64,000 nucleotides of DNA, taken from positions 21,305-85,304 of the forward strand of contig JBDRJV010000022.1 in assembly GCA_043814605.1 (NCBI GenBank), read 5' to 3'. This stretch comes from Candidatus Omnitrophota bacterium. GTDB lineage: Bacteria; Omnitrophota; Gorgyraeia; B26-G9. The position numbers were made by a program, and so were the translations under genes. Positions 23,294-53,282 of this stretch are shown here, piece by piece. The notes beneath the pieces were generated by a model, which saw nothing but the letters and a program-made list of their open reading frames with translations, ran no database searches and had not been told where the DNA came from. Position 1 is the stretch's first letter, and every line of letters begins with the position of its first letter.

Positions 23294-23452
23294 AGCAAGT
23301 AGCAAGAGAAACTACGAGCTAGATTACAAATATTAAAGTTTAGATAAAAACATAGAATTTTAAAATTCTTCATTTTTATTTTTAATTTCCACTTGTACTC
23401 GCCACTTTATTTAAGTATCTATTTTTTCTTGCTACTCGCTACTTTATTTAGC
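23294..23452. repeat. Intergenic element with imperfect roughly 17-bp terminal inverted repeats (AGCAAGTAGCAAGAGAAA ... TTTCTTGCTACTCGCT) and an internal 20-bp direct repeat (TACTCGCCACTTTATTTAAG / TACTCGCTACTTTATTTAGC)
   Basis: Read directly from the sequence between uppS and the GH57 gene. The interior is AT-rich. Confidence 0.35.
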
Positions 23453-25028
23453 TATGGAACCTGTAATCAATGTCCGGAAATATATTATTTTTAAATTCAA
23501 TTTTACCCAGCCAAGCTTGATTTATATTGTTCCCCTTAATTTGATGGTATAATTTCGTAAAATTCAAGATATGCTCTTTGGTTCTTTCCACTGCATAAGA
23601 AACATGCGTACCCGTTTTTATAATAAACGCCCAGTCTGAACTTTGCGCGAGTAATAATTCTCGCAATGACTGATTTAGAGCATTTTTCCTTAATCCATCC
23701 GCTTCCGGATAAAGTTTGACCAATTCACACATCCGATCCGAAGCTTTATGCAAATGGCGGTAAATCCAATCATTCGAGCCTTCCAGCCAAAACTCAGAAT
23801 ACCCTTTCCATCCCCAGCTTGACATTGACGGAGTAATCACTTGATTTTTAGGATATTTTTCTAAATACTGTGAAGGCGTAATCATTTTAATTATGTTTTG
23901 GTCATAAGCAATTTTACGCATTAAAAAATTTATCCAATCCGGCCCTTCATACCACCAATGTCCGAATAATTCTGCATCGTAAGGAGAAATAATTATCGGA
24001 TTTCTTTTCGTAATACTTTGAATATATTCGACTTGCTTTTGCCGATTAAACATAAAATTTCCCGCATGAGAAGCTGCTGTATCCATAGCTGCCTCCGGAT
24101 TATAAGGCTGTTTATCGTCTGTTCTGCCGGTTATCCGATAATACTTTATCCCGGTATTTGTTCTAATCCCATCCGGATGGATATACGGTTTAATATAATC
24201 AAAATCCAAATCAAAACCAATATCCCGGTAAAATTCACGATAATTATAATCTCCGGGATAACCCTGTACTGCACTCCAAACCTGCTTTGAAGATTCCAGG
24301 TCACGGCCAAAACAAGCCACACCGCTTTTACAATAAACCGGGGCAAAAACCCCGTACTTAGGCCTGGGCGTACCGTGTAAAATCCCGTGTGTATCTGTAA
24401 AAAAATAACGCAGCCCATTTTCTTTTAAAATCTGATCATCGCCCGGATTATACCCGCATTCTGGCAGCCAGATTCCCTTCGGCTGCCGGCCAAAAACACG
24501 TTTATATTGATCCACTGCAGTTTTTACTTGCGCCCGGACCGAAGCCTTGCACACATCCATCAGCGGAAAAAATCCGTGTGTTGCCCCGCAAGTCATAATT
24601 TCTAACTTACCTGTATCCTGAATTCTTTTAAATGCTTGGACAATATTTTTTTTATTTTGCTCAACAAAACAATACCGTGCTAAATTAAAGTTACTTAAAT
24701 ACATTAAAGCCAGCCGATTAAATTCTGGCTGCCAACGTGTTCTTTCTACTTCTCTTGAGGCTAATTCTATTAATTTTTCAATATGACGCGTATAGCGGTC
24801 CTGCAACAATGGATCCATAAGCATTGAAATTAAAGTCGGTGAAAGTCCGATTGTAATCCGGAAATCAACATTATCTTTAATTAGCCGCTCAAAAATAGTC
24901 AATAACGGAATATATGTTTCTGTAATTGCTTCATATAACCAATCTTCTTCTAAAAAATTCTCATGCTCTGGGTGCCGCACAAAGGGTAAATGACCGTGTA
25001 AAACAAAACAAAGATATCCTTTTTCCAT
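23448..25028 (-). CDS. Glycoside hydrolase family 57 protein, 1,4-alpha-glucan branching-enzyme-like
   Basis: The N-terminus GYLCFVLHGHLPFVRHPE is the GH57 signature. 526 aa. Confidence 0.8.
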   Translation of the reverse strand: MEKGYLCFVLHGHLPFVRHPEHENFLEEDWLYEAITETYIPLLTIFERLIKDNVDFRITIGLSPTLISMLMDPLLQDRYTRHIEKLIELASREVERTRWQPEFNRLALMYLSNFNLARYCFVEQNKKNIVQAFKRIQDTGKLEIMTCGATHGFFPLMDVCKASVRAQVKTAVDQYKRVFGRQPKGIWLPECGYNPGDDQILKENGLRYFFTDTHGILHGTPRPKYGVFAPVYCKSGVACFGRDLESSKQVWSAVQGYPGDYNYREFYRDIGFDLDFDYIKPYIHPDGIRTNTGIKYYRITGRTDDKQPYNPEAAMDTAASHAGNFMFNRQKQVEYIQSITKRNPIIISPYDAELFGHWWYEGPDWINFLMRKIAYDQNIIKMITPSQYLEKYPKNQVITPSMSSWGWKGYSEFWLEGSNDWIYRHLHKASDRMCELVKLYPEADGLRKNALNQSLRELLLAQSSDWAFIIKTGTHVSYAVERTKEHILNFTKLYHQIKGNNINQAWLGKIEFKNNIFPDIDYRFHS

Positions 25029-25273: not shown

Positions 25274-26704
25274 TTAATTCGTTTTTTTCTTAACAACTGG
25301 GGTAATTTCTCTTGTATCTACACCATCTTCAGAAACTGCTTTAACCGGAATTACTTGCTGGCCATCCGGCAAAGCAAACCTTAAACTAAAAGTTCCATCT
25401 TTATTTAAAGCAATCGGGTTTCCTTGTACAGTTACTTTTGCGTCTGGTTCTGTTGCTCCATAAACAATCAATTCTGTATTAACTTTAAGCCAAAATTTAC
25501 GTTTTTGCGCTTTTTTCCCGGCTCCGGGCGAAGATAATATTCCGGAAGAAATATCGCTCATTCTTTGAATAATCTGTCTTCTGATATCCGCAGAACTAAG
25601 CCCAATTCCCAGGCCTGCGGATAATCCGTAAAGCTTATTAAAATCCTCCTCTACAATCATCCATTCCTCATCCGTAACCCAGCTAGAGCCATCAATCGGA
25701 GTTGAGACACAATTAGAACGGGCTAATAAAACAAACCTGCCGTCTTTTAAACAAAACCCAATATCTACACAAAAACTGCGTCCGGGATTTGCGGTATTTA
25801 TATACCAGTTATTGGCAAAATTATTAATATCAATATCCCAAAAATTGTTTGCATTCGAACCGCTAAAATTCACACTGGTAATATCATAAACTCTTAATAT
25901 GCGCCGGGCATCTTCCAAAGCCCCGTTAAATTCCTGATAAACAGTATTCAGTTTTGCCTGTGTAATTTCCCAATAAGCGTGCAGCCAATAAGGATCTCTG
26001 ACCTGAATAATAATGCGGTTATCCCCGTAGCCTAAGGGTAATTCTGCAAACTCTTTTTCCCCCACTACATTTTCTACCGGCACAGGGCTGACAAAAAATT
26101 TGCTTTCTTCAATAATCTGCTCTTGTGCTAAATTCTGCATTAAAGCTGGTTCTTTTTTATTTTTGCTAGTAAACAAATATTTTAGTTCACTGATCGGCCC
26201 TAAACGGGTTGATTTATCTTTTTCTTTTGTTTGCCTGTTCTGATTTTTTTTAACCAGCTTAATTTTGGAATTTTCTGCTGTTTGGATGTTTTTTGTTTTT
26301 TTTGCTTCTGTTTTTTTTGAATTTGCCATCTTCATCACCTCTGTTTTCCGGGCAGCTTGACGGGAAATAATTTTTTGCCAGGTACTCGCTTTATCCGTAT
26401 TTTTTCTTACTGTTTTTTTAGGCTGAGAAACAGTTTTTTTTCTCTCAATTTTTTTTATCTTAACCCTAGGCTCTGATTTTATCTTTTGTATCGTTACTTT
26501 TTTTAGCTTAGGTTTTTCCCGTTTTCTTTCTGTTTTAACTGCTTTTTTCGCTGCTTTACCTTTAACCGCGCTTTGAGTTTGAAAAGATGGCTTTACTGTA
26601 TTTTTAACTTTTAAATTTTTCTCTTTGAATTTGGATTTAATTATCTTTTTCTGATCAGCTATTTTTTTCGTCTTACTATTTATAACTGCTTTTTTTTTAA
26701 TCAT
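25274..26704 (-). CDS. Lysine-rich protein with a conserved C-terminal domain that resembles DUF4912
   Basis: The first roughly 190 aa are low-complexity K-rich (KKxxK repeats). The C-terminus contains LPLGYGDNRIIIQVRDPYWLHAYWEI, which I recall as the core of DUF4912. That is recall, not a search result. Confidence 0.45.
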   Translation of the reverse strand: MIKKKAVINSKTKKIADQKKIIKSKFKEKNLKVKNTVKPSFQTQSAVKGKAAKKAVKTERKREKPKLKKVTIQKIKSEPRVKIKKIERKKTVSQPKKTVRKNTDKASTWQKIISRQAARKTEVMKMANSKKTEAKKTKNIQTAENSKIKLVKKNQNRQTKEKDKSTRLGPISELKYLFTSKNKKEPALMQNLAQEQIIEESKFFVSPVPVENVVGEKEFAELPLGYGDNRIIIQVRDPYWLHAYWEITQAKLNTVYQEFNGALEDARRILRVYDITSVNFSGSNANNFWDIDINNFANNWYINTANPGRSFCVDIGFCLKDGRFVLLARSNCVSTPIDGSSWVTDEEWMIVEEDFNKLYGLSAGLGIGLSSADIRRQIIQRMSDISSGILSSPGAGKKAQKRKFWLKVNTELIVYGATEPDAKVTVQGNPIALNKDGTFSLRFALPDGQQVIPVKAVSEDGVDTREITPVVKKKTN

Positions 26705-27680: not shown

Positions 27681-28415
27681 TCAATCTGCTATTTTTTCTA
27701 ATTTATGAGTTTTATTAAAATCCATAAACTCCGCTATTTCCTCAGGTGTTAGATTTATATCATCTAAACTCAGTGCTTCTTTTTTCTGTATATTTTCGCT
27801 GCTGGTTCTTTTTTGCAAAACCGGAGAGACTATGGCTGGTTTAAATTTTTTTGTTATTTTTTTCTCAGCCGGAATCTCGCCCGGGCTGGATAAGGTTTCG
27901 TCTTGTTCTATTTCTATTGTTTTGTGCAATGTTACTGCGGATAATTGTCCCTGCTGTTTATTATCAAATATTTTCTCAAAAATTACTCCTTCAATATCCT
28001 GGTTAACTACATATTTTACTTCAATAAGTTTAATATCATTCAGCTCTAACTGTTTTGCTGCCGATTGAATTTTTTTTGAAAAACAATCACATACCAAAAT
28101 AATTTCTGCGGCACGGTTAAAATCAATATTTTCATTAAAAAACAATCTTTTAATCAAAGTTTCATTGTCTTTTAACCATTGCAACTGGCTTAAAGTGCCC
28201 TCTAAAATTCCCTCATTTGCACTCTCAATATCAAAGTTAACCACCACCAGCCGGCCGGTATCATCAATGCCTAAAAAATCCATGAATCCGTTTTCCTGCG
28301 TACCCAATTCCAAATCAATAAAACTTAAGCCCGGGCTTAAAGCCTCCGGATTTTTTAGAATAATTTCTTTTAATTTTTTTCTCGGGATTTTTTGTTTTTG
28401 AAATACTCTCTCCAT
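27681..28415 (-). CDS. Hypothetical protein. The N-terminal segment has a weak resemblance to the DUF91/NucS-type PD-(D/E)XK fold, and the C-terminus is acidic or charged.
   Basis: GFMDFLGIDDTGRLVVVNFDIE resembles the G.iDll..D.dG.lvviE.K core but lacks the E.K. The similarity is weak. This is the third gene of the operon. Confidence 0.3.
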   Translation of the reverse strand: MERVFQKQKIPRKKLKEIILKNPEALSPGLSFIDLELGTQENGFMDFLGIDDTGRLVVVNFDIESANEGILEGTLSQLQWLKDNETLIKRLFFNENIDFNRAAEIILVCDCFSKKIQSAAKQLELNDIKLIEVKYVVNQDIEGVIFEKIFDNKQQGQLSAVTLHKTIEIEQDETLSSPGEIPAEKKITKKFKPAIVSPVLQKRTSSENIQKKEALSLDDINLTPEEIAEFMDFNKTHKLEKIAD

Positions 28416-28448: not shown

Positions 28449-29375
28449 TCACCTTAACCCGCTAAACTCATCAACAATACGCTTAAAAAACATTTTTCCG
28501 GCAGCCGGATTTGTTTCTTCCAGATTTAAGCGCAGCACAATTATTTGGGCAATATTCGATATACAGGCAGTAAGATCCGCATCATAAAAAGAAGCGATAT
28601 TTGTATTCGAATCAATTTCCTGTTTAATCTTAAACATAAACCCGTATTTATACAATTCTTTGTCTAAAAATTTCCTTACCGCACCGGCAAGTTTATTATA
28701 AATTTTATCAATTTCATACATATGGTCAATATCGGCAATAATTGCCCCGACTTTAGCCAGCGGATTATGGGCAAAAATAATTTTCATTACTTTATAGGCA
28801 TTAATCATATTATTGCTTTCGGGGTTTACTAATACCAAAAACTCGCGGATTAAATCCTTAAATACCGGGGATATTTTTAATAAATTTTGCTGCATCACGC
28901 TGATTAAAATCAGGTCTGAATTTTCTTCAATATCCTTTAATTTTAGCATTAGTTCCTGTTCTTTTTCTTCGCTGGCTAAAAAGCTTAAACTTTTTTGGTT
29001 TAACCCGATTATTTTTACGCCTAACGGACCGTCTTTAATTAACATCTGGGGGTTACTGATTTCTGTATTTTGCACATCCCGGCCTAAGAAAAATTTCAGG
29101 CAAGGCAAATCTTCATCCATATCCACAACGGTAATCCGCATTCCTAAGCGGGCCAGAGCTAAGGAAAGATTAATCACGAGAAAAGCATCTCTAAAATCAG
29201 TGCTGTTTCCGATTAAACCCACACTTTTTGTCGGAACTTTTACTGGATAAGCCGCGGTTTCTTTTTGAGCATCACTTTTGGTAGGATCTAAAACTTGATT
29301 TTCATCCTGTGAAAGGAATAAATAAGAAATATCTTCTAATCCTTTTCCCAATTTTTTTAACTTATTCATCTGCAT
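28449..29375 (-). CDS. ParA/MinD/FlhG-fold protein with a degenerate Walker A, a likely non-catalytic partner ATPase
   Basis: ...VGLIGNSTDFRDAFLVINLSLALARLGMRITVVDMD aligns to the MinD/ParA P-loop region, but KGG(V/C)GKT(T/S) is replaced by NSTDFRDA. A Walker-B-like DLILISV follows. The N-terminal roughly 50 aa are an extension. Confidence 0.5.
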   Translation of the reverse strand: MQMNKLKKLGKGLEDISYLFLSQDENQVLDPTKSDAQKETAAYPVKVPTKSVGLIGNSTDFRDAFLVINLSLALARLGMRITVVDMDEDLPCLKFFLGRDVQNTEISNPQMLIKDGPLGVKIIGLNQKSLSFLASEEKEQELMLKLKDIEENSDLILISVMQQNLLKISPVFKDLIREFLVLVNPESNNMINAYKVMKIIFAHNPLAKVGAIIADIDHMYEIDKIYNKLAGAVRKFLDKELYKYGFMFKIKQEIDSNTNIASFYDADLTACISNIAQIIVLRLNLEETNPAAGKMFFKRIVDEFSGLR

Positions 29376-29401: not shown

Positions 29402-30553
29402 CTATTCGATTTCAACTAAAGAATTCTCATTTCCCACCGGATCAGAAACTCTTTTTGGATTATTAGGATCAACAATCCATTTCCCATCTACAATAAACTT
29501 ATACTGATATTTCCCCGGGTTTAATTTATAGACCCGAGACCATACCCCTTTTTCCTCATTCTCTAATTTACTCTGGTTCTGCGCTACCCAATTATTAAAA
29601 TCACCGGCAATTTCTACGCTTTTTGCCTCAGGCGCATAAACAAAAAATTTTGTTTCTTTTTCTAATTTTTTCTCAGGTATTATTTTATCTATATCCTGCT
29701 TTTGTTGTATTTGCGGTTCTTGTGCTCTGGCTTTATCCAGAACGCGTTTAATGAAAATATCGTCTTGTTTATTTTTCGCTGTATTTTTTATTGAAGAAAC
29801 TTCCCGGGCTAGCTGTATATAATCTTCGGCGCCATTACTGCGCTGATCATAACTGGTTATGGGAACGCCGTGGCTGGAAGCTTCTCTGAGGCGGATATTA
29901 TTACGAATGATTGTGTTAAATACATTACCTGAAAAATATTTAAATATTTGTTCTTTAATCTCCTGCGCAAATCGGGTGCGGCGGTTAAACATTGTCAATA
30001 AGGCTTTAACTTTTATTTTACAATCTAATCGGGAATTAATCAGATTGATTGTTTCCATAAGTTTACTGATCCCATGTAAAGAAAAGAATCCTGTTTCCAC
30101 CGGGGCAATAACTTCATTTGACGCACGCAGCGCATTAAAGGTCAGCAGTCCCAAGCTCGGTGAGCAGTCAATTATCACAAAATCATATGTCTTTGTTCCG
30201 ACCATTAATGATATTGCCTGATGCAATTTTGCTTCTCTTGCGGGTTTGCCGGAAAGCTCCTGTTCTATTGCGCAAAGCCTGATATTTGCCGGAGCTAAAT
30301 CTAGTTTTTCGGTAATACGCGTTATTACTTGATCTAAGCGCATCCGGCTTTGCTCATTATCTGTCAAAACATTATACATTGATTTTTCCAAATTTTCTGG
30401 ATTAACATTCAGGCCTAAAGTTGCATGCGCCTGCGCATCCATATCAATAAGCAAGACATTCTGGTTTAGATCCGCTAAACTTGCTGCGAGATTAATTGCT
30501 GTTGTAGTTTTACCGCATCCGCCTTTTTGATTCGCAATAGCAATTATCTGCAT
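29402..30553 (-). CDS. ParA/MinD-family ATPase fused to a C-terminal CBM48 / AMPK-beta-type glycogen-binding domain
   Basis: Deviant Walker A at residues 9-17 (QKGGCGKTT), A' and B motifs, and a ParA fold through about aa 260. The C-terminus FFVYAPEAKSVEIAGDFNNWV...GKYQYKFIVDGKWIVDPNNP...NSLVEIE matches the AMPK beta GBD (GSFNNW...HQYKFFVDGQWTHDP). Confidence 0.8.
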   Translation of the reverse strand: MQIIAIANQKGGCGKTTTAINLAASLADLNQNVLLIDMDAQAHATLGLNVNPENLEKSMYNVLTDNEQSRMRLDQVITRITEKLDLAPANIRLCAIEQELSGKPAREAKLHQAISLMVGTKTYDFVIIDCSPSLGLLTFNALRASNEVIAPVETGFFSLHGISKLMETINLINSRLDCKIKVKALLTMFNRRTRFAQEIKEQIFKYFSGNVFNTIIRNNIRLREASSHGVPITSYDQRSNGAEDYIQLAREVSSIKNTAKNKQDDIFIKRVLDKARAQEPQIQQKQDIDKIIPEKKLEKETKFFVYAPEAKSVEIAGDFNNWVAQNQSKLENEEKGVWSRVYKLNPGKYQYKFIVDGKWIVDPNNPKRVSDPVGNENSLVEIE

Positions 30554-30728: not shown

Positions 30729-31130
30729 TTAGTTCCATTCTTGAGGGCCTGCACCAGCTGCATTATCATACGTACCATCCTGATCCATTGTTACCATTTG
30801 ACCGCTATAAGGACCAGCGATTCGTGATGCTGTAGTAACAACTGTTGAAGGAGTTGCAACACTTGCATATGTCCAATCCCCATCATCACCGTCTAGATAA
30901 TCATCAGGCAAATCAACATCAGTTAAATCAGCATAAGCAGCAGTAAACTGATCTTGAAGCGCTCTATACTGTATTTGCGCATTTGTAATCGCGCGTAACC
31001 CTGCTTTTGCTTTCCCGCCTTTTGTTCTTTCAATTGATCTAAAATAACTTGGTACAGCTATTGTTACCAATATACCGATAATGATAACAACCATTAAAAG
31101 TTCCACAAGTGTAAAACCTTTTCTCTTCAT
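30729..31130 (-). CDS. pilA: Type IV pilin, candidate major pilin
   Basis: MKRKGFTLVELLMVVIIIGILVTIAVPSY is a class III signal with G/F cleavage and Glu+5. It has its own strong promoter and terminator. Confidence 0.8.
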   Translation of the reverse strand: MKRKGFTLVELLMVVIIIGILVTIAVPSYFRSIERTKGGKAKAGLRAITNAQIQYRALQDQFTAAYADLTDVDLPDDYLDGDDGDWTYASVATPSTVVTTASRIAGPYSGQMVTMDQDGTYDNAAGAGPQEWN

Positions 31131-31873: not shown

Positions 31874-31908
31874 AACCCAATTCTGACCGCGGGGGTCAGA
31901 GTTGGGTT
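31874..31908. repeat. REP-like palindromic element, copy 1 (AACCCAATTCTGACC-GCGGG-GGTCAGAGTTGGGTT)
   Basis: 15-bp arms with a 5-nt loop. It abuts the stop codon of the 1303-aa gene. A near-identical copy lies at 36049-36083. Confidence 0.6.
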
Positions 31909-34900
31909 AAATTGACATTTCTGGATTTATATTGTGCATGTAAAAAATATCTTTTATTTGCTCTAAGGCAATCATGGCAACCTTGGAATCTTCAACAACT
32001 TTTTTTTGCCTTGCCTTGTTTTTAATAATTCGCTCAAGTGAATCAATAAAACTACATGCACTTTCCTGCTCATAATCCTTTAGCTTGCTAAGATCAATTA
32101 TTTTAATGCATTTTAATAACTGCCTTAAGTATTTATTCTTTAAAAATTTTAACTTATAAAGAAGCTTATCAGAATCATAGTAACCAGAGCTGATTGATAT
32201 CCGAATTAGCTCAGCCGCATCAAATCTCTTTTTATTGCTGGGTGATTGTAAAGCCTCTACCACCTGACCTTCAATTTGCGGCATAATTTTCGGTACCATT
32301 GCCGGCATAACTAATTTTGAAAACATTTTTACCGCTAAAGAACTGGTAAAATTAAAATCTTTCACTCTATCTTCACCTGTATATACTGTTACAATCCCAG
32401 AATATTTATCTTCTATGCCAAATAAAAATACAGCAATCCGGTTTTTTTTATTATCTCCAGTGCCGGTTTTCCCAAATATATTAATATGTTCGGCTAAAAC
32501 AGAATTTTTAATTTTTGCCCTTTGCGCTGATCCTTGCAAAACAACTTGTTTCAAAACTTTTATACCAACCTCTGCTATTTCTTTAGATAACACTTGCTCT
32601 GATTTTAAGAGCATTTTATTTAGAAAACTGGCAAAAGGGGTTTCTCTGGCTAACTGGATTTCTCCAACTTCCTGAGTATCTTTTTTAACCCCTTTATTTA
32701 TCAAAATACTAATTAAATCCACCAGTGCTCCGGGCGTATCCCCCGAAGGCCCCAGCGCCACGCTCAAGGTAGGGATAACTTTAAACGGATATCCTAGTTT
32801 TTGCCAAAAAGGCGTGATCTTCTGGTAAAAAATACTTTTTTCTAAATCTGTATAAATCCTCCGATACATTTCATGTGAAGCCGCAGGACTTAATAACCAT
32901 TCCGCTGTACTATTAATAATCATTTTTGTCTGTTTTGAATCAGGTTGATACCCTGATTTTATTTGCTGTTTTAGCCATTTACTTTGTTTTTTAGCTAATC
33001 TTTTAAAAAAATCCTGATATGTTTTATTTTTCATTTGCGCAATAGTCTTTTTAATATTTCCTTTATTTTGTTTTGCTTGTCTAATAAACTTTATAATCTC
33101 CTCAGCTATGTGCTTCTTTTCTGTCTGAAGTACCTCCGTAGCATACTCCTGCCAAACCGGATTATTATGATTCTTACATATCTCATCCGCTGCATACCCA
33201 AATGTTTGCTCAACATAATACTCAAATATTTGTTCTGCTAAACGCACAAAAACTAAATTAATGGATAGAATTAATGCTTTGTCCACGCTCACAGCCTCTA
33301 AGTTATGTGCCGGATGATAGTTATTTATTTGCTGCCAGCCGCCGGCTGTAAAAAATTTACCCGGCATTGCAGAAACTTTATATTTTAAAGCTTTTTCTAA
33401 TATATCCTTTAAACTCAGATCAGGATTCACATATAACTGTGCAATCACCCACTGGCTTATCGGATTACTTTTTTGTGCAAGTGCCATTTCTAATTCCACT
33501 GAGCTTTGGGCAAAAGATTTATGAAAATTATAGACATCTGCAACAATAGTTAAAAATTGTAAAAAAATACGCAGTTTAGCAGTTGAACCCAATTCCGTCT
33601 TACTATCTAAAACATAGTCAAACTGCTGATCATCAAATGTATCAATATGTGCGACTACTTTATTTGCAGATGAAGCATCTCCACCTTTTTCTACTACATA
33701 ACAGCTATAGCGCAACTGAGAAATGTCATTATTCCTTAAATTAATCAGTTTCCTGCCGGCAAAGGAATACTTTTGCAAAAAATACGGATCATACATTTGT
33801 ACAAAATTTTCATACAGCTTCTGTTGCAATAAATGATCATTAGAAGCTCGCAACCTTATATCCATCCTATTTAATGTATTAAGATTAATTAAATCCTCTG
33901 GAGTTGATTCTCTTAAAAGCTTTACCATCCAATTACGCATGGACAAAGCCGCCCGATTTTTACCGTAAGGCACTCCGTTAAATAAAACTTTTTTCTGCGG
34001 ATTCCAATAATCATAAGTTTCTTGTGCAGTTTTTGATTCTTGTTCGCTAATAAATTCCATCCTCTGGATTTTTTTTAAAAGCAGGTTTGCTTCCTCATTA
34101 CCCCCATTATTTCTTAATATGCTTGGATTTCTAATTGCACCCATCAAGGCCGCAATTCGTTTTAGAGCCTTAGTCCGTAACTGCGGATCTTTTAACTGCG
34201 TATTTAGTTCCGTCAGACTGATTCCGTAAAAAGCGTACAAAGCCTCACCAAAACCAATAACTTCCCCCAGATAACCGTTTGGCCCACCGGCAAATGGTAC
34301 CCAGTTTAAATAATTCAATAATATATTTTGCGCAGCGAGTTGCGGATTATCATTGCTAAAAAGTAATGAGGCATGTATAAGCTGCTTAATTTTTTCTTCA
34401 AAATCTTTTGTTTTACCATTTTCTGAATGTAGTATTTTAGCTAACTGAATCGCAATTGTACTTGCTCCGTGCACTCTCCCATAATAATCATGTGAAATAT
34501 TACTATAGATAATTGAGTATATCGCGTTTACTAAACGCCGCTCCTCAATTATATAATTTCCTTTTCCTAGAAATACTCTCAATTCCGGAAAAAGCAGTTG
34601 TAATAACTTTGTATTTTCCCAAGCTAGGAGCATTTTTATGATCAAAGGGTCAACATCTGAAAATTTTTCAATTCGATAAGGATCATTATATTCATAAATA
34701 ATTCTTTCTTGAGGATCAATAATTAAAAAATTATTTCCCTGATCCCAAACTGGCGGCATAATTGAGCGTTTTTTTATTAGATCAATTAATAACCGGGATT
34801 GAGCTGTTTTCGCTTTAAAGTCAAATCCCTGTTTATTAATCAAAAAAGAAATTAAATCAGGCAACAAAATATAACCTTTTGTTTTAGAGTACAAACCTGT

Positions 34901-35818
34901 TTTGGGATAAACCATTTTAATGCCTGATAAATTTTTACCTTCATCTTTAAACACTGTTTGCCAATAAATACATGCACGCATAAGGTTAAAATATTGTTTA
35001 TACAAAACCGCATAATAAAGTTCAAAAAACAATATTGCTTTAAATGACAGAAAAAGCCCGGCAATAAGTAACCATTTTTTTCTTCTATCCGTGGGAAATT
35101 GTATTTTTTTAATTAAAAGTAAATGCGGGGTTAAAATCGCAGCAACTAATAAGCTATTAAAAATTAAGGAACCAAAGCAGTAACAATAACTTATGGTAAA
35201 AACAGCCGGAATTAATATCACCCCGGATAAAAAACTAACTAAAATTTTATCTAAACCAAACGCATCTTCTAATACAGTTTCGCGGAAAATCTTATTCTTA
35301 CCAACTCCCCAAACATGAGACATATGCCAGAAAACCTGAAAAGTGATAAATGATTGAGCAAACCATCTGAAACTATCTTGAGTAATATCAAAAGGCAGAC
35401 CGGTTTTTTGATACATAACAAAGGCCATACCACAGATCATTAAAAACGGGTAATAATAAATTTCAAAAAACTTTTTAATAAAATCTCTGTGATTTTTCCA
35501 AAACAGCTTGAAATATTTTTTTAAACCATCTGTAAAATTAAAGGGGAAATTTTTTTCTTTACCTTTAATCTTTTCTTGTTGTTCTTTAAAATTCAATAAT
35601 GTTCTTTTTATCTTGCCTTGCTGCCGCATTGTTTGGTTAAACGATCCGGCAAATAAGTCTATAAAGTTATTCTGGGAAATTTGCACTTGCGGGGATAAAC
35701 AATCATGACGATTCTTGCTAAAACCAGACAAATCTCCTGCGGCAAAAACAAGGTTTGTCCATAATAATAGCTCTATTAATATGAAAACAATAATATTTAA
35801 TTTTAACTTATTTTTCAT
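31907..35818 (-). CDS. Highly divergent class A penicillin-binding-protein-like protein (GT51 transglycosylase-like plus transpeptidase-like motifs) with extra N-terminal TM segments and large insertions
   Basis: Signal or TM plus about 5 additional TM helices. HGASTIAIQLAK matches GT51 motif 2. KIKQLIHASLLF...ILLNYLNWVPFAGG matches motifs 3/4. ELGSTAKL is an SxxK motif, LSIN is an SxN motif, and FGKTGTGDNKKNRIAVFLFG matches the KTG(T) motif plus the D..WFVG region. These are my motif-level calls, not a search. Confidence 0.5.
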   Translation of the reverse strand: MKNKLKLNIIVFILIELLLWTNLVFAAGDLSGFSKNRHDCLSPQVQISQNNFIDLFAGSFNQTMRQQGKIKRTLLNFKEQQEKIKGKEKNFPFNFTDGLKKYFKLFWKNHRDFIKKFFEIYYYPFLMICGMAFVMYQKTGLPFDITQDSFRWFAQSFITFQVFWHMSHVWGVGKNKIFRETVLEDAFGLDKILVSFLSGVILIPAVFTISYCYCFGSLIFNSLLVAAILTPHLLLIKKIQFPTDRRKKWLLIAGLFLSFKAILFFELYYAVLYKQYFNLMRACIYWQTVFKDEGKNLSGIKMVYPKTGLYSKTKGYILLPDLISFLINKQGFDFKAKTAQSRLLIDLIKKRSIMPPVWDQGNNFLIIDPQERIIYEYNDPYRIEKFSDVDPLIIKMLLAWENTKLLQLLFPELRVFLGKGNYIIEERRLVNAIYSIIYSNISHDYYGRVHGASTIAIQLAKILHSENGKTKDFEEKIKQLIHASLLFSNDNPQLAAQNILLNYLNWVPFAGGPNGYLGEVIGFGEALYAFYGISLTELNTQLKDPQLRTKALKRIAALMGAIRNPSILRNNGGNEEANLLLKKIQRMEFISEQESKTAQETYDYWNPQKKVLFNGVPYGKNRAALSMRNWMVKLLRESTPEDLINLNTLNRMDIRLRASNDHLLQQKLYENFVQMYDPYFLQKYSFAGRKLINLRNNDISQLRYSCYVVEKGGDASSANKVVAHIDTFDDQQFDYVLDSKTELGSTAKLRIFLQFLTIVADVYNFHKSFAQSSVELEMALAQKSNPISQWVIAQLYVNPDLSLKDILEKALKYKVSAMPGKFFTAGGWQQINNYHPAHNLEAVSVDKALILSINLVFVRLAEQIFEYYVEQTFGYAADEICKNHNNPVWQEYATEVLQTEKKHIAEEIIKFIRQAKQNKGNIKKTIAQMKNKTYQDFFKRLAKKQSKWLKQQIKSGYQPDSKQTKMIINSTAEWLLSPAASHEMYRRIYTDLEKSIFYQKITPFWQKLGYPFKVIPTLSVALGPSGDTPGALVDLISILINKGVKKDTQEVGEIQLARETPFASFLNKMLLKSEQVLSKEIAEVGIKVLKQVVLQGSAQRAKIKNSVLAEHINIFGKTGTGDNKKNRIAVFLFGIEDKYSGIVTVYTGEDRVKDFNFTSSLAVKMFSKLVMPAMVPKIMPQIEGQVVEALQSPSNKKRFDAAELIRISISSGYYDSDKLLYKLKFLKNKYLRQLLKCIKIIDLSKLKDYEQESACSFIDSLERIIKNKARQKKVVEDSKVAMIALEQIKDIFYMHNINPEMSI

Positions 35819-36098: not shown

Positions 36099-36806
36099 TC
36101 ATAACTTGCCCTCTTCAAATCCGTATAGGGATTTTGCACATTCAGGACATAGCCCGTGCGTAAATTCTGTTTCAGAATGATCAGTAATATATCTTTCAAT
36201 CTGATTCCAATAACCTTTATCATCACGGATTTTTTTGCAATTCGCGCAAATTGGTAAAATTGTTCTTAAAGTCATGACTTCTTTACGAATCTTATTAACA
36301 ATGATATTTAAAAGAAAACCTAACCAAACTGCATAAAACAAAAATCCAAAGTTAGTAAAAATAGTTCTCCAGGTTGCCGCAGGGCCTGAAAATAATAATA
36401 TATTGTGAAAAATAATTATTAGCGATCCAGGCACGAGAAACTCAATGAATGGTTTACTGGATAATATTGCCGCAACTAAAATAATTACCATATTGCCGGC
36501 AAAATAAATACTGTTAAATCCTTCACCAACAATAAGTGTTATATATGAAATGCTAATCCCGCATACAACATAAGCCGAAGCAATTATCACAGATACTAAT
36601 TTTTCCGGTATTTTTTCAATTACAAAATAAAAAATAAAACAATAGGCCATGGCAAATAAACGCACAATAAGCAGGGGCAACCAAAAGTTAAGATAGTAAA
36701 TGTGATCTAATAAATGATAACTTAACATGCCAAAAAAACCGATTAAAAGATGTATGGCCAAACGGGTTTTTAATTCATTAAGGTTTGTTTTAATCATTTT
36801 TTGCAT
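36099..36806 (-). CDS. Polytopic membrane sensor-like protein with a C-terminal 4-Cys (CxxC...CxxC) domain, paralog B
   Basis: About 5 TM helices, then LRTILPICANCKKIRDDKGYWNQIERYITDHSETEFTHGLCPECAKSLYG. I moved the start to MQKMIKTNL, matching the paralog. It is about 70% identical to the upstream gene. Confidence 0.5.
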   Translation of the reverse strand: MQKMIKTNLNELKTRLAIHLLIGFFGMLSYHLLDHIYYLNFWLPLLIVRLFAMAYCFIFYFVIEKIPEKLVSVIIASAYVVCGISISYITLIVGEGFNSIYFAGNMVIILVAAILSSKPFIEFLVPGSLIIIFHNILLFSGPAATWRTIFTNFGFLFYAVWLGFLLNIIVNKIRKEVMTLRTILPICANCKKIRDDKGYWNQIERYITDHSETEFTHGLCPECAKSLYGFEEGKL

Positions 36807-36817
36807 TATATTAAAAC

Positions 36818-37531
36818 TCACGGCCATTCCTTATCTTCTTCAAATCCGTACAAAGCTTTTGCGCAATCCGGACATATACCGTGTGTAAATTCTGTTTCAG
36901 AATGATCAGTAATATATCTTTCAATCTGATTCCAATAACCTTTATCATCACGGATTTTTTTGCACTTTGAACAAATCGGCAGAATTGTTCTTAAAGTCAT
37001 GACTTCTTTACGAACCTTATTAACAAGGATATTTAAAATAAAACCCAAAGCTACTGCATAACATAAAAACCCGGAAGTAGTTAAAATGGTTCTCAAAGTC
37101 GCCTTCGGACCAAAAGATAATAATATGTTGTGCAAAATAATTATTAGGGAGCCAGGCACGAGAAACTCTACAAATGGTTTACTGGTTAATACCGCCATAA
37201 CTACTATAATCACTATATTACCGGCAAAATAAATACTGTTAAACCCTTCATTTACAACCATAGTCATTGATGAAATACCGAATGCAGCCACAATATAAGC
37301 CGAACCCATTACCGCAGATACTAGTTTTTCCGGTATCTTCTCAATAATAATATAGAAAATAAAACAATAAACCATTGTAAATAAACGCACAATAAGTAAG
37401 GGCGAGCGATAATCAGGATAATAGACACAATCCCATAAATGATAACTTAACATGCCAAAAAAACCGATTAAAAGCTGTATGGCCAGGCGGGTTTTTGATT
37501 CATCAAGATTTACTTTAATTATTTTTTTCAT
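36818..37531 (-). CDS. Polytopic membrane sensor-like protein with a C-terminal 4-Cys domain, paralog A
   Basis: Same architecture: ...ICSKCKKIRDDKGYWNQIERYITDHSETEFTHGICPDCAKALYG. It is a tandem duplicate of the downstream gene. Confidence 0.5.
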   Translation of the reverse strand: MKKIIKVNLDESKTRLAIQLLIGFFGMLSYHLWDCVYYPDYRSPLLIVRLFTMVYCFIFYIIIEKIPEKLVSAVMGSAYIVAAFGISSMTMVVNEGFNSIYFAGNIVIIVVMAVLTSKPFVEFLVPGSLIIILHNILLSFGPKATLRTILTTSGFLCYAVALGFILNILVNKVRKEVMTLRTILPICSKCKKIRDDKGYWNQIERYITDHSETEFTHGICPDCAKALYGFEEDKEWP

Positions 37532-49590: not shown

Positions 49591-50646
49591 CTACTCTTTT
49601 TTAAAAATTGACTGAAAAAACTTTATTGAAATACCACTCACTAAAAAAAAATAAGCAACTGTTCCGGCAGTATCCAGCCATTTCTTTAACCCAATACTCC
49701 GCAAAATTGCGCATAAAATAAGCCCTGACATAAATGCTACAAGACATTTATCAGAAAATTTACAATCTAAAACCCAAATTATTTGCTCTTTAATCCAAAG
49801 AAATACCTTATTTATAATATAAAATATTTTATTGAAAATTAAACTGTTATCTCCAATATTTCTTCTTCCAATATCATCTTTTAATTTATTTAATAACACC
49901 CATGTCAATAAATTTACAATCATATTTGCAAATGCAACATTGATACAAACAAATAAAAAAGCATACTTTATCTGCACCACCAATGAATACGGCCCTTTCA
50001 GAGAAATATACCCCAAAACTAAGCAGAAAAAAGCACAAAATATAAACGAAAAAATATTATTTAAAATACTCTGCTTTATAGATAGATTCAATACTATTAA
50101 TTCAAATAAAAGCATAATCCACCATAAAATTACTATAAAAAAGAAAAAAATAATTCCTGGTAACAAAACTTTTTTTAAATCATTATTTCGAAGGACTGAA
50201 TCACGAAGAGTCAAAATAATATTTTCATTATGCACTTGACCCAGAAAATTCTTCGTGCGAACCATCAAGTTTTTAGGATTATTCGGATAGAAATGAACCT
50301 GCAACTTATTATTACCTTCGACCATTATTTCTTTAGGAACATAATAATAACGCGACAGAATACAATTTTCCGAACTATTACTAATTCTAAGTTCAAGTTT
50401 ATTATTATTTAGTTTAGCCAGTTCCGCATCTGTATTTTTAGCATCGAATTTAAGCTGTAACAAATAATCACTGACCTTTGGCAAACTTATTATAGTCTCG
50501 AACACTTCAGAATTTACTAAAAAGATATCTTCTTTTTTTACAATATTCTCATGGATCCCTGATGAGCAAAGTAAAAAAAATGCCACAGTAAAAACTGTTG
50601 CAAAAATTATGCTCAAAACTAAACTTATTTTTCTAGTTCTTTGCAT
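49591..50646 (-). CDS. Hypothetical membrane protein
   Basis: 351 aa, an N-terminal TM, an extracytoplasmic domain of about 140 aa, then about 6 TM helices. No motif recognised. Confidence 0.35.
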   Translation of the reverse strand: MQRTRKISLVLSIIFATVFTVAFFLLCSSGIHENIVKKEDIFLVNSEVFETIISLPKVSDYLLQLKFDAKNTDAELAKLNNNKLELRISNSSENCILSRYYYVPKEIMVEGNNKLQVHFYPNNPKNLMVRTKNFLGQVHNENIILTLRDSVLRNNDLKKVLLPGIIFFFFIVILWWIMLLFELIVLNLSIKQSILNNIFSFIFCAFFCLVLGYISLKGPYSLVVQIKYAFLFVCINVAFANMIVNLLTWVLLNKLKDDIGRRNIGDNSLIFNKIFYIINKVFLWIKEQIIWVLDCKFSDKCLVAFMSGLILCAILRSIGLKKWLDTAGTVAYFFLVSGISIKFFQSIFKKE

Positions 50647-52564
50647 CTATAGCTCCTTTTTTCTTAATATCTAGATATTTTAAATAAAATAAACAAGCAA
50701 TAACTGCCACAAAAAATATTATTAATCCCAAATAATAAAGCAGCTGTGGCCAAAAATATATTATTATTGTAAAATTTTCATTCAAACCCAATTTACTCGG
50801 TTCTACCCGCCAGCAATTTGCATAACCATTAGCAAAATAGTGCGGTAACTTTAACGGCTTTTTAAATAATAACTTTACATCTTCAAAACTAAATTTATAT
50901 TCACCTCTTGATTCTTTTACATGTAAATGCGGATAGTCTGCTACTATTTCATTAAACTCCTCTGGCTTGTGAATAGAAACTTGTGACTCATACAGCTTCC
51001 ACTGTTCATGAAAACTTTCACTAAATACAAGCCAAAAAGGATAATTTGCTCCTTTAATATTAACTAAATATTTTACCGGATTTATTTTTTTAAAGATTAT
51101 TTCCGGCTCTTGAGTTATGAATTGTAAATTAGGAGTTACAACTGGTTCTAATATTACCCACTCTATTTCAATAATACTATTTTTTACTTTTTCATAATGA
51201 TGTTTTCCCTTTCTCAGATCAATTATCTTTTGCAAAATAATTTCCTGATCATCTATGTGTTTTTCCCAATTTTTAAAACTATTCAGGGAAACTTCCTCTT
51301 CATCTATTTTTAAAAAAACAGGATTAAATTCAGAAAGCAAAGAAGTAAATTTTTCTTTTGTTTTAAGAGCCTTTAAAGGATAAGGGAGCCCTTCACTGCT
51401 TCTATTCAACTGGAAATTCCCTAATTTCAATTCAAAATATTCTTTTTCAAGTAAAAGTTTTTTTAGTTTTACTTCCAGTACTAAGGTCATATACTTAGAC
51501 TTATCATCCTGAAATATATTATTTATATCAATTACTATATTGTCATCGTTTTTTTTGTATTGCTCCGGGGAGAGGCTGAACATCTCTACTTTATCACTTA
51601 TATCCTCACTCTTATGAAAGATGGCATAAACTCTTACATCATAGGCTTCTTGTCCGGCTGCTTCACAATCAAAGGAAAGAGAATCTATTTTTCGCAATTG
51701 TTCTTCAGAAAACTGGATATAAACCGATAGCTGATTATTCTCATCCTTAGGAGCTGTTCTGGACTCGAGGTCATGTTTGCTTTCAGTATCGTGATAACAT
51801 AAAATTTTAAACTTTTCGTTCTGTTTTAATAGGGTATATCCCATATTATCGCTTTGGATCATTAATTCTGGATCTATTTTTTGCCTTTTAAGAAACTGAA
51901 TAGACTTTTCATTATAAAATTTTAGATTTTTTAACCTGAATATATATATTTCATTATCAATTTCACTCATATTTTTATTAAAAGAATGAATAAAAAATAT
52001 TTTTCTTAATATAAAACCTTTCGACACTTCATTAACCGATAATAACTCTTTTTTAATTTTATCAAGAATATAATATTGGCTGAACGTATCTATTCTAACA
52101 TAGCCATCAACATCGTTATCTCCCATATAATCAATACCCAAATTAGCATATATGCGTTGATCATTTTTATTCGGAATTTCCGCTTCTATCTCTGAGAAAG
52201 GGAATTCCTCCAGATTAATTTCCACGGATCGGCTTAAAGCAATGGTATTTCCTCCCGATAATAAAATATCCGCAAATTCTTTACGCGGTAAGCATTTAAC
52301 AAATTCTTTTGATTCATTTAAAGAGGTTTTCTGCCCTGCTTTAAAAAAAGAATTAATATCTTCTTTAGAAATAAACTCAATTTCCCAGTTTTTTATCTCA
52401 TCTCTCCAATCTGCCACTTTATCTTGATAATATATTCTAGAGTTTACAAATTTAGAATTTAGCTTAATTTTTAAATTATAAGGTTCAGTTTCCTGAGCAA
52501 ATACAACCACAGGGAATAATAATATAATCAGTACTATTTTTCTGCAAAAATTATTTTTTTTCAT
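50633..52564 (-). CDS. Hypothetical secreted or membrane-anchored protein
   Basis: 643 aa, N-terminal signal peptide and a C-terminal TM anchor. No motif recognised. Confidence 0.35.
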   Translation of the reverse strand: MKKNNFCRKIVLIILLFPVVVFAQETEPYNLKIKLNSKFVNSRIYYQDKVADWRDEIKNWEIEFISKEDINSFFKAGQKTSLNESKEFVKCLPRKEFADILLSGGNTIALSRSVEINLEEFPFSEIEAEIPNKNDQRIYANLGIDYMGDNDVDGYVRIDTFSQYYILDKIKKELLSVNEVSKGFILRKIFFIHSFNKNMSEIDNEIYIFRLKNLKFYNEKSIQFLKRQKIDPELMIQSDNMGYTLLKQNEKFKILCYHDTESKHDLESRTAPKDENNQLSVYIQFSEEQLRKIDSLSFDCEAAGQEAYDVRVYAIFHKSEDISDKVEMFSLSPEQYKKNDDNIVIDINNIFQDDKSKYMTLVLEVKLKKLLLEKEYFELKLGNFQLNRSSEGLPYPLKALKTKEKFTSLLSEFNPVFLKIDEEEVSLNSFKNWEKHIDDQEIILQKIIDLRKGKHHYEKVKNSIIEIEWVILEPVVTPNLQFITQEPEIIFKKINPVKYLVNIKGANYPFWLVFSESFHEQWKLYESQVSIHKPEEFNEIVADYPHLHVKESRGEYKFSFEDVKLLFKKPLKLPHYFANGYANCWRVEPSKLGLNENFTIIIYFWPQLLYYLGLIIFFVAVIACLFYLKYLDIKKKGAIDAKN

Positions 52565-52571
52565 CCTAAAA

Positions 52572-53234
52572 TCAGTTTATAAAAAACTCTCCTCTTTCCT
52601 TCTCCAAAATATAATATAAATCAGTTTTTTTGCTATTTACTTTCTGTTTTAAAATTTCTCTAGTACTTTCTCTTTCCTTTTCTTCCAAGATAAGCATTTT
52701 TAGTTGCAACGCGTTAAGATCCATTGAAACATTCTTAAGCACTACAGGATATATTCCTCTGTTTAATTCTGCTTCGCCAATATATGTATACATAGTTGTA
52801 TTTTGGGAGACTACCTTTTTTTGATTTTTTAATATTTGTTTGTTATCAATTTTAACGATCCAGTCTTCTTTCTTTTTCTGATTTTCGTCAAAATTTGAAC
52901 AATCCAACCAGAATTCAAAATTGCCTTCTTTTTCTATTTTTACCCTAAATTTTTGTGAATAACTAATCGATCTGGCTGCAATTTCTACGGCTAAATCCTG
53001 CCATGTCGTATCACAAAACACAAAATTAACAACCTCGGTCAAAATCTCTATTACATCAGCACTGCCGATAAACTGTTCTGAAAAAAATATCACTGGCTTG
53101 CTATCTAGGAATCTAGTATGGGTAAGTTCCGCTGAAATATCATCACTTCCTACAACAAAAACAGTTTCCGCAAAAACATTAAAACATAAAATATTTACTA
53201 TAATAAAAATTATAGCCAAAAATCTTATTTTCAT
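52572..53234 (-). CDS. Hypothetical secreted protein
   Basis: 220 aa, signal peptide. No motif recognised. Confidence 0.35.
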   Translation of the reverse strand: MKIRFLAIIFIIVNILCFNVFAETVFVVGSDDISAELTHTRFLDSKPVIFFSEQFIGSADVIEILTEVVNFVFCDTTWQDLAVEIAARSISYSQKFRVKIEKEGNFEFWLDCSNFDENQKKKEDWIVKIDNKQILKNQKKVVSQNTTMYTYIGEAELNRGIYPVVLKNVSMDLNALQLKMLILEEKERESTREILKQKVNSKKTDLYYILEKERGEFFIN

Positions 53235-53282
53235 CTTTTTCCTTGCCTTCTTATGCTTTTAAAAGCCTGCCCCACTTTAATT

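Follow-up and report, generated by a model that had tools for sequence, protein, structure and literature searches.

The subject of this analysis is a gene for a protein of 308 amino acids (aa), here called the pseudo-ATPase, which lies at 28449..29375 on the minus strand of a 64,000-nucleotide stretch of DNA from a Candidatus Omnitrophota bacterium (NCBI GenBank assembly GCA_043814605.1, contig JBDRJV010000022.1, positions 21,305 to 85,304 of the forward strand), together with the two genes that flank it, one for an ATPase with a carbohydrate-binding module (ParA-CBM48) and one for a 244-aa protein (gene 3). The whole stretch is referred to as the window, and all positions are those of the window. 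The open reading frame (ORF) is intact, with an ATG start and a further in-frame ATG at codon 3, and its product is identical to ABIG64_05650, a hypothetical protein encoded on a 221-kb contig of a Candidatus Omnitrophota metagenome-assembled genome (MAG) at NCBI. The gene starts 26 nt after the stop codon of ParA-CBM48 and is separated from gene 3 by 33 nt. A preliminary description of the locus had seen in the product a ParA/MinD-fold protein with an ablated Walker A motif and an N-terminal extension of roughly 50 aa, encoded directly after an active ParA-CBM48, and in all these respects it was borne out. The features of the three genes are:

28449..29375, minus strand: pseudo-ATPase gene (308 aa), with N-terminal peptide, disordered linker, FlhG/MinD-like core without nucleotide-binding motifs and C-terminal amphipathic helix.
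29310..29363, minus strand: N-terminal motif KLKKLGKGLEDISYLFLS (residues 5-22), a ParB-type LG[RK]GL peptide and putative ParA-binding/activating element.
29232..29309, minus strand: variable low-complexity linker (residues 23-48), without conserved columns in family alignments; predicted local distance difference test score (pLDDT) <50 over residues 1-46.
29181..29213, minus strand: degenerate P-loop (residues 55-65), IGNSTDFRDAF in the columns of xSGKGGVGK[ST]x of the FleN/FlhG alignment.
28881..28913, minus strand: degenerate Walker B/Switch II strand (residues 155-165), LILISVMQQNL versus IILVDTGAGxS.
28452..28493, minus strand: C-terminal amphipathic helix MFFKRIVDEFSGLR (residues 295-308), matched by hhalign to the FlhG membrane-targeting sequence.
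29402..30553, minus strand: ParA-CBM48 (383 aa; Pfam AAA_31 7e-53, AMPK1_CBM 9e-17), a Soj-type ATPase with a C-terminal AMPK-beta-type CBM48.
27681..28415, minus strand: gene 3 (244 aa), with a NucS/EndoMS-C-like PD-(D/E)xK-fold domain without the ExK residues, a disordered linker and a C-terminal peptide.
27717..27752, minus strand: conserved C-terminal peptide LTPEEIAEFMDF of gene 3, family form LTxEEIxEF.

Single-sequence searches of the pseudo-ATPase against family collections remained below threshold (Pfam CbiA, E=1.4e-3; NCBIfam minD_arch, E=1.9e-4). With phmmer the protein matched FleN in the PDB (9e-7), and a profile built from 28 orthologs matched FlhG 4rz2 (3e-14), FleN (2e-13) and MinD 1hyq (3e-7), with the plasmid proteins ParF/ParA reached only at about 2e-3. 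The AlphaFold2 (AF2) model had a pLDDT of 77.9 and a predicted template modelling score (pTM) of 0.76, with an ordered core at residues 49-285, a disordered segment at residues 1-46 that contained a short helix (14-19), and a terminal helix at 296-306. Foldseek with this model returned FlhG 4rz2 first (E=2e-14, TM 0.61/0.72), followed by MinD (3e-12) and FleN. Alignment of the family with the canonical FlhG alignment by hhalign gave a probability of 100% and E=5.9e-50 over 271 columns, including the C-terminal FFxRL, and alignment with ParA-CBM48 gave 97% and E=1.7e-11 over 144 columns. By these results the pseudo-ATPase belongs to the FlhG/MinD clade and not to the Soj-type ParA proteins. Y194, K198 and G245 are invariant core positions of the family.

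A profile search of 1.84 billion representatives gave 2014 matches, of which the best 150 were classified. These comprised 40 clusters (50% identity) with the N-terminal motif and without Walker A, eight representatives with the motif and an intact Walker A, and 53 canonical FlhG proteins (DQAxxLR plus GKGGVGK[ST]). The DQAxxLR motif was accompanied by Walker A in all 53 and was found in none of the members of the pseudo-ATPase family, whose public annotation is 'hypothetical protein' or 'MinD/ParA family protein'.

Compared with TSGKGGVGKTN, the P-loop columns of the window protein carry S58 in place of the signature Lys, D63 in place of the Walker A Lys and A64 in place of Thr/Ser. The deviant Walker A was absent from all members of the close-homolog set (n=45), and 40 of 48 motif-bearing representatives had no GxxxxGK[ST]. 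A frameshift masking an intact P-loop was considered and rejected; the alignment with FlhG is gapless across the region and all orthologs are in the same state, so the motif was ablated by substitution. The helix that follows the P-loop (LVINLSLALARLG) is retained, as had been described. A Walker-B-like segment had also been reported; its hydrophobic strand is kept, but the Asp is gone, replaced by S160, so that Walker B is dead too. In Switch I the window protein keeps VVD85MD87, in a segment that is not conserved in the wider family. Mean column entropies of 30 diverse family members and of active relatives were 2.98 versus 0.47 bits for Walker A, 2.48 versus 0.91 for Switch I and 2.70 versus 1.20 for Walker B, with the helix behind the P-loop about equally conserved (1.86 versus 1.66). 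It looks as if an active FlhG-like ancestor lost its P-loop in stages, by way of intact GKGGTGKS and partial GxxxRGK[TS] forms, and ended as a scaffold.

The most conserved element of the whole family is not the fold but the N-terminal peptide [KR][KR]LG[RK]GLE[DE][IV]SHLFLS, which the extension of about 48 aa carries and which makes it more than the spacer it might have seemed. The logo of 81 distinct N-termini reads [KR][KR], L (85%), G (88%), [RK] (100%), G (87%), L (87%), E (79%), [DE] (96%), [IVF] (92%), S (92%), H (69%), L (61%), F (95%), L (74%) and S (91%). For comparison, 30 distinct ParB N-termini were harvested from ordinary parA-parB loci of the metagenome scan used for ParA-CBM48, being recognised by their GERRxRA box, and these read [KR][KR]xG and then L (100%), G (100%), [RK] (100%), G (100%), L (83%), x, A (93%), L (90%) and L (80%). 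Common to both are the LG[RK]GL core, which stands around residue 10, the basic residues before it and, three positions past it, a hydrophobic residue. In Myxococcus xanthus ParB, L11, R13, L15, L18 and I19 contact a pocket on the ParA dimer and activate ParA, and the position of R13 is occupied by Lys in about half of ParBs (PMC12462528). Partners of ParA/MinD ATPases generally act through a charged, disordered N-terminus (PMC10241942, PMC11407121). A search of the PDB with the 25-residue N-terminal peptide gave no match, the query being too short for phmmer. Across phyla, identity to the window proteins was 50-80% in the N-terminal peptide, 47-54% in the ParA ATPase domain and 40-48% in CBM48, and only 20-30% in the pseudo-ATPase core and in gene 3.

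The neighbourhood of the family was surveyed from both sides. The N-terminal pattern was searched in one genome per GTDB species and gave 38 loci, from MAGs of Omnitrophota, Zixibacteria, Nitrospirota, Syntrophaceae and other delta-proteobacteria, Pseudomonadota and Bacteriovoracaceae. A ParA gene stood directly upstream of the pseudo-ATPase gene in 36 of the 38, from at least five phyla, and carried CBM48 in 35 of these 36; of the two exceptions, L047 begins at a contig edge and L045 has no adjacent ParA. A NucS-like gene followed directly downstream in 32 of the 38 loci, and one Nitrospirota subgroup is without it. The metagenome scan, seeded on ParA-CBM48, yielded 15 full-length loci with sufficient downstream sequence, and ten of them had a motif-bearing or MinD-like partner directly downstream. 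The question whether homologs always travel with ParA-CBM48, which the preliminary description had raised, is thus answered largely in the affirmative from the partner side (35 of 38 loci), but not from the ParA side, and in four loci (L029, L065, L066 and L071) a ParA without CBM48 is followed by the same partner.

The bodies joined to the peptide differ among lineages. In three loci (L052:5088-5789, L056:3496-4149 and L058:5178-5807) the peptide (..PLGRGLEDVSHLFLS..; LGRGLEDVSHLFLS) is fused straight to the NucS-like domain with no MinD core, and in two others (L061:5443-6996 and L073:1357-2889) all three parts, the MinD-like core included, are joined in a single chain of about 515 aa. The peptide is the constant companion of this ParA clade, and the dead MinD core and the NucS-like domain behave as interchangeable or fusable bodies. 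This constancy, with bodies swapped or fused, favours a contact mediated by the peptide and a physical complex of the pseudo-ATPase with the gene 3 product.

Two further loci (L048:2986-4819 and L049:2502-4335) hold an active MinD-like protein (GKGGTGKS) with a related N-terminal peptide, LGRSLEDIS, encoded after a 121-aa ParA remnant. The remnant is without Walker A and Walker B, so that the degenerate member is here the ParA, and the pair adjoins genes for a sigma factor, an anti-sigma kinase and a STAS protein.

In ParA-CBM48 itself Walker A is intact (NQKGGCGKTT in the window; NQKGGCGKT in 40 of 40 orthologs examined), and its ATPase domain matched the chromosomal-type ParA structure 8ray with E=8e-54. 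The Soj-type motif NIRLREASSHG is present, within which lies an Arg that we take to be the DNA-binding one. The CBM48 matched the carbohydrate-binding modules of AMPK beta1 and beta2 with E of about 2e-9, and NNW, YKF, DGxW and NS are conserved across the family, at positions that presumably correspond to the glycogen-contacting W100, K126, W133 and N150 of AMPK beta1. With respect to the ParB-binding pocket, the PSLGLLT loop is identical to the loop of M. xanthus ParA that contains the ParB-contacting L150-G151-L152, and Y60 and E99 correspond to the invariant Y81 and E117 of that protein.

The N-terminal 150 residues of gene 3 gave a weak match to NucS (Pfam NucS_C, 0.005; profile against the PDB, E=0.02, with NucS/EndoMS as the sole family). 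The AF2 model had a pLDDT of 61 overall and 68-88 in the N-domain, a moderate result because the homolog search found just four proteins. Foldseek placed EndoMS 5gke (1.3e-5) and NucS 2vld (about 1e-5) first, followed by other PD-(D/E)xK nucleases. The GxIDxLAxD strand is kept and the ExK catalytic pair is absent; judged from sequence and model, the gene 3 product is also a pseudo-enzyme.

At the C-terminus of the pseudo-ATPase, MFFKRIVDEF was aligned with the FFxRL of FlhG by hhalign, in the segment modelled as the terminal helix, whose hydrophobic moment is 0.70 versus 0.51 in shuffles. An FFxxL-like motif follows a Gly/Ser-rich linker in 29 of the 45 family members, mostly from Omnitrophota, Zixibacteria and part of Nitrospirota, and is missing from the delta-proteobacterial forms. 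Membrane or surface anchoring of the window protein by this predicted helix is therefore plausible, though not as a trait of the whole family.

From these data the pseudo-ATPase would descend from an ATPase of the FlhG/MinD type and, having lost catalysis, would have become the cognate partner of ParA-CBM48, in the role that ParB, McdB or PomX has elsewhere, a reading that we consider reasonably probable. The disordered N-terminal peptide would dock on the ATP-bound ParA-CBM48 dimer, stimulating it to hydrolyse ATP and to leave the nucleoid. The dead MinD-like core, with no nucleotide cycling of its own, would act as a scaffold paired with the nuclease-dead NucS-like protein of gene 3, a pairing suggested by the fusion of both in some genomes, and in Omnitrophota the core may also bring the FlhG-type amphipathic helix for association with a membrane or surface.

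The cargo of such a system may be indicated by the genes further along the row. The prepilin-type gene, ParA-CBM48, the pseudo-ATPase, gene 3, YfiH/Cu-oxidase_4 (13 nt after gene 3), DUF4912/Glucodextran_B and the GH57 branching enzyme form a tight, co-oriented row, of which the outer members are:

30729..31130, minus strand: prepilin-type (N_methyl) protein, 133 aa, directly 5' of ParA-CBM48.
25274..26704, minus strand: DUF4912/Glucodextran_B protein (Pfam), recurring near the module in several phyla.
23448..25028, minus strand: GH57 alpha-glucan branching enzyme (Pfam), recurring near the module in several phyla.

A GH57 gene stands near the module in Omnitrophota and in three Zixibacteria loci (L008, L025 and L027), and in an alternative neighbourhood of ParA-CBM48 (L053 and L062). 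The most likely function of ParA-CBM48 would be to hold alpha-glucan (glycogen) by its CBM48 and the nucleoid by its DNA-binding face, and from such bridging it would follow that the module positions or partitions glycogen granules, which is the weakest step of the scheme. Glycogen is proposed as cargo because of the CBM48 residues and the GH57 neighbours in three lineages. That the three genes constitute a dedicated and undescribed ParA-type system for glycogen granules, in which the ATPase grips the cargo and the pseudo-enzyme serves as ParB, perhaps from the membrane or DNA, is put forward tentatively and is the less probable part of the proposal. Alternatively, the cargo could be DNA, to which the NucS-like protein would bind as an adaptor in the manner of ParB.

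In the DUF4912 protein the N-terminal half, of about 220 aa, is Lys-rich and of low complexity, and a Glucodextran_B-like domain forms the C-terminal part. Its gene is invariably flanked in Omnitrophota by YfiH on one side and by the GH57 branching enzyme on the other, and the proteins measure 338-627 aa, the spread in length coming from the variable N-terminal half.

Several observations weigh against the ParB-like role or limit it. Five of the 15 ParA-CBM48 loci recovered from the ParA side (L051, L053, L054, L057 and L060), and likewise L062 with a shorter flank, lie in a different neighbourhood, so that pairing is frequent and not obligatory for ParA-CBM48. Two of the ParB-contact residues are changed, V116 of M. 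xanthus ParA, a residue of the hydrophobic pocket that was mutated in PMC12462528, being replaced by Q98 and D110 by R92; as far as the aligned residues can tell, the contact set for the ParB peptide is kept only in part. Past the LG[RK]GL core the motif reads E[DE][IV]SHLFLS versus xALL in ParB, and since a few members (L006, L061, L063 and L073) keep only [RK]xL..[DE]ISHLFLS, the critical element of the peptide may be ISHLFLS rather than LGRGL. A small subclade (L007, L038 and P0289) retains a Walker-A-like G[KE]xxRGK[TS], and nucleotide binding is thus not lost everywhere. Finally, a ParA with its own cargo-binding module is atypical for ratchet systems and does not by itself indicate whether the partner sits on the membrane, on DNA or on the granule.

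The different neighbourhood of these ParA-CBM48 loci has its own composition. ParA-CBM48 is followed by genes for a small membrane protein (about 105 aa; ..EGKVFAILGYLWILCIIPL..) and for a Lys-rich protein and is preceded by one for a protein that begins M..EIYEHLAKVYLGKK (about 190 aa), and GH57 is near (L053:1732-3288 and L062:3-587).

The preliminary description had proposed that the pseudo-ATPase heterodimerises with ParA-CBM48 through the shared fold and so regulates it. Such a MinD/ParA-style, face-to-face heterodimer, in which the dead subunit caps or modulates the active ATPase, would be in keeping with the common superfamily detected by hhalign, with the adjacent and probably co-transcribed genes, and with the retention of helix 1 behind the P-loop and of D85/D87 in the window protein. 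However, the protein segments that build the sandwich interface together with the nucleotide, the P-loop with its signature lysine and the switch regions, are the least conserved ones of the family; the core is of the FlhG type and just remotely similar to its Soj-type partner; and interface specificity normally keeps ParA/MinD ATPases homodimeric (PMC10241942). Furthermore, L052, L056 and L058 have the peptide without a MinD core, and the core has diverged far more quickly than ParA (identity 20-30% versus about 50%). A sandwich heterodimer is thus less likely than engagement of ParA-CBM48 by the peptide, and we regard it as unlikely. Regulation through the peptide is better supported, since the ParB-like peptide co-varies with the ParA-CBM48 clade, and regulation of ParA-CBM48 by a dead-ATPase partner, to judge from these patterns, probably holds. 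The analogy with FlhF/FlhG as a pair of active and dead ATPases does not stand, given that FlhF is a GTPase of the signal recognition particle (SRP) type and FlhG is an active ATPase; that FlhG happens to be the nearest relative of the pseudo-ATPase is a coincidence.

It is quite improbable that non-canonical binding of a nucleotide or other ligand persists and makes the protein a switch, like the atypical ATPases of the TadZ/CpaE type, rather than a passive scaffold. The Walker-A-like motif of the subclade mentioned above, the sister group of eight representatives with intact GKGGTGKS and a similar N-terminal peptide, and the D85xD87 of the window protein would all suit a switch. Against this, the window protein and 40 of the 48 motif-bearing representatives have neither the two lysines and the Thr/Ser of the P-loop nor the Asp of Walker B, and the sequence of the P-loop segment drifts freely.

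An FlhG-like regulator of a surface appendage (type IV pilus, type II secretion system (T2SS) or flagellum), to which the adjacency of ParA-CBM48 would be incidental, is very improbable. Its nearest relatives are indeed FlhG/FleN, nearly all Omnitrophota loci have a prepilin-type gene immediately before ParA-CBM48, and pilus and T2SS genes are present at 8.9-16.2 kb of the window; yet the DQAxxLR N-terminus that is the hallmark of FlhG is replaced, no flhF or flagellar genes were found among the window ORFs scanned, and the pilin neighbour is restricted to Omnitrophota, being kept in no other phylum, whereas the pairing with ParA occurs in all phyla sampled. A functionless, decaying relic of a duplicated ATPase gene, as which the lost catalytic motifs and the fast divergence of the core might be read, is effectively refuted by conservation, namely by ORFs that are intact and uniform in length and architecture across at least five phyla, an N-terminal motif that hardly varies, a confident AF2 fold and the invariant Y194, K198 and G245.

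The remaining window is chromosomal and housekeeping in character, with ftsH, hisG, lpxB, the pilus/T2SS genes, proS, ispG, rseP, dxr, cdsA and uppS, and ParB was not found within its 64 kb; a mobile-element or plasmid-partition context was rejected for the window on these two grounds. A scan for promoters and terminators gave counts no higher than in shuffles. A 1303-aa protein (31907-35818, minus strand) has as its sole Pfam match a transglycosylase domain (residues 434-574, E=1.2e-12), and six consecutive or paired ORFs on the minus strand (351, 643, 220 and 578 aa at 49591-55019; 242 and 237 aa at 36099-37531) have no Pfam match at E<=1e-5. The G+C content falls to about 0.29-0.30 near 50-56 kb of the window.

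ParA/MinD ATPases organise chromosomes, plasmids, carboxysomes, chemoreceptor arrays, flagella and the divisome. The partner proteins define the cargo and are hard to find, and hence many of these ATPases are called orphans. What is unusual here is that the partner is recognisable by a ParB-like peptide, that the remainder of this partner belongs to the ATPase's own superfamily but is dead, so that evolution may have led from an active FlhG-like protein to a scaffold, and that the ATPase bears a glycogen-binding module and recurs beside a GH57 branching enzyme in several phyla. Conservation of the association in five or more phyla suggests a cargo-positioning system not described before, which may serve glycogen granules. 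In the full-text literature searched, no ParA-CBM48 fusion, no ParA system for glycogen and no MinD/FlhG-like pseudo-ATPase as a ParA partner was found, and a recent review of ParA/MinD cargos mentions neither glycogen nor carbohydrate (PMC11407121). If the proposal were true, this would be the first ParA-type positioning system for a polysaccharide storage body; with glycogen as cargo it would open the unstudied question of how storage polysaccharide is distributed at bacterial division and offer a compact three-gene module for in vitro work. The N-terminal motif is also a simple search handle for further partners of the ParA-CBM48 clade.

Among known systems, FlhG/FleN (YlxH), a MinD-type ATPase that controls flagellar number and placement, is the best match of the pseudo-ATPase in sequence, profile and fold. 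Both share the core topology, the DAYxxIK helix (Y194 and K198 in the pseudo-ATPase), the C-terminal FFxRL amphipathic helix and a regulatory peptide on a disordered N-terminal extension. Unlike FlhG/FleN, the pseudo-ATPase lacks the deviant Walker A and the Walker B Asp, its Switch I is not conserved, the FlhF-activating DQAxxLR is replaced in its family by LG[RK]GLE[DE]ISHLFLS, and it is paired with a Soj-type ParA, away from any flhF or flagellar context. MinD resembles it in fold and in the C-terminal amphipathic helix, and differs in that the pseudo-ATPase has no ATP-binding motifs and no minC or minE neighbours and carries an N-terminal extension. Membership in the TadZ/CpaE group was rejected; the N-terminus is a disordered peptide of 48 aa and not a receiver-like domain, Pfam recognised no other domain, and no tad/cpa pilus locus lies around the gene.

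With NucS/EndoMS, gene 3 shares the G-x-I-D-x-L-A-x-D strand motif of the C-terminal nuclease domain, but it has neither ExK nor the NucS N-terminal domain, and its LTxEEIxEF peptide is its own. ParB (Spo0J) is comparable in the peptide at residues of about 5-20, preceded by a basic pair and with an identical LG[RK]GL core with its central R/K, and in being encoded directly downstream of its ParA. In contrast to ParB, the body of the pseudo-ATPase is a dead MinD-like domain, with no match to the ParB/Srx CTPase domain (ParBc) or a helix-turn-helix in Pfam or NCBIfam and with no part for parS binding, and its motif continues differently after the core. McdB of carboxysomes, PomX/PomY, ParP and MinE present the same general two-gene arrangement of an ATPase with a fast-evolving partner that works through a charged N-terminal peptide (PMC11407121 and PMC10241942) and defines the cargo, whereas in the module described here the ATPase itself bears a cargo-type CBM48 and a third, nuclease-fold protein takes part.

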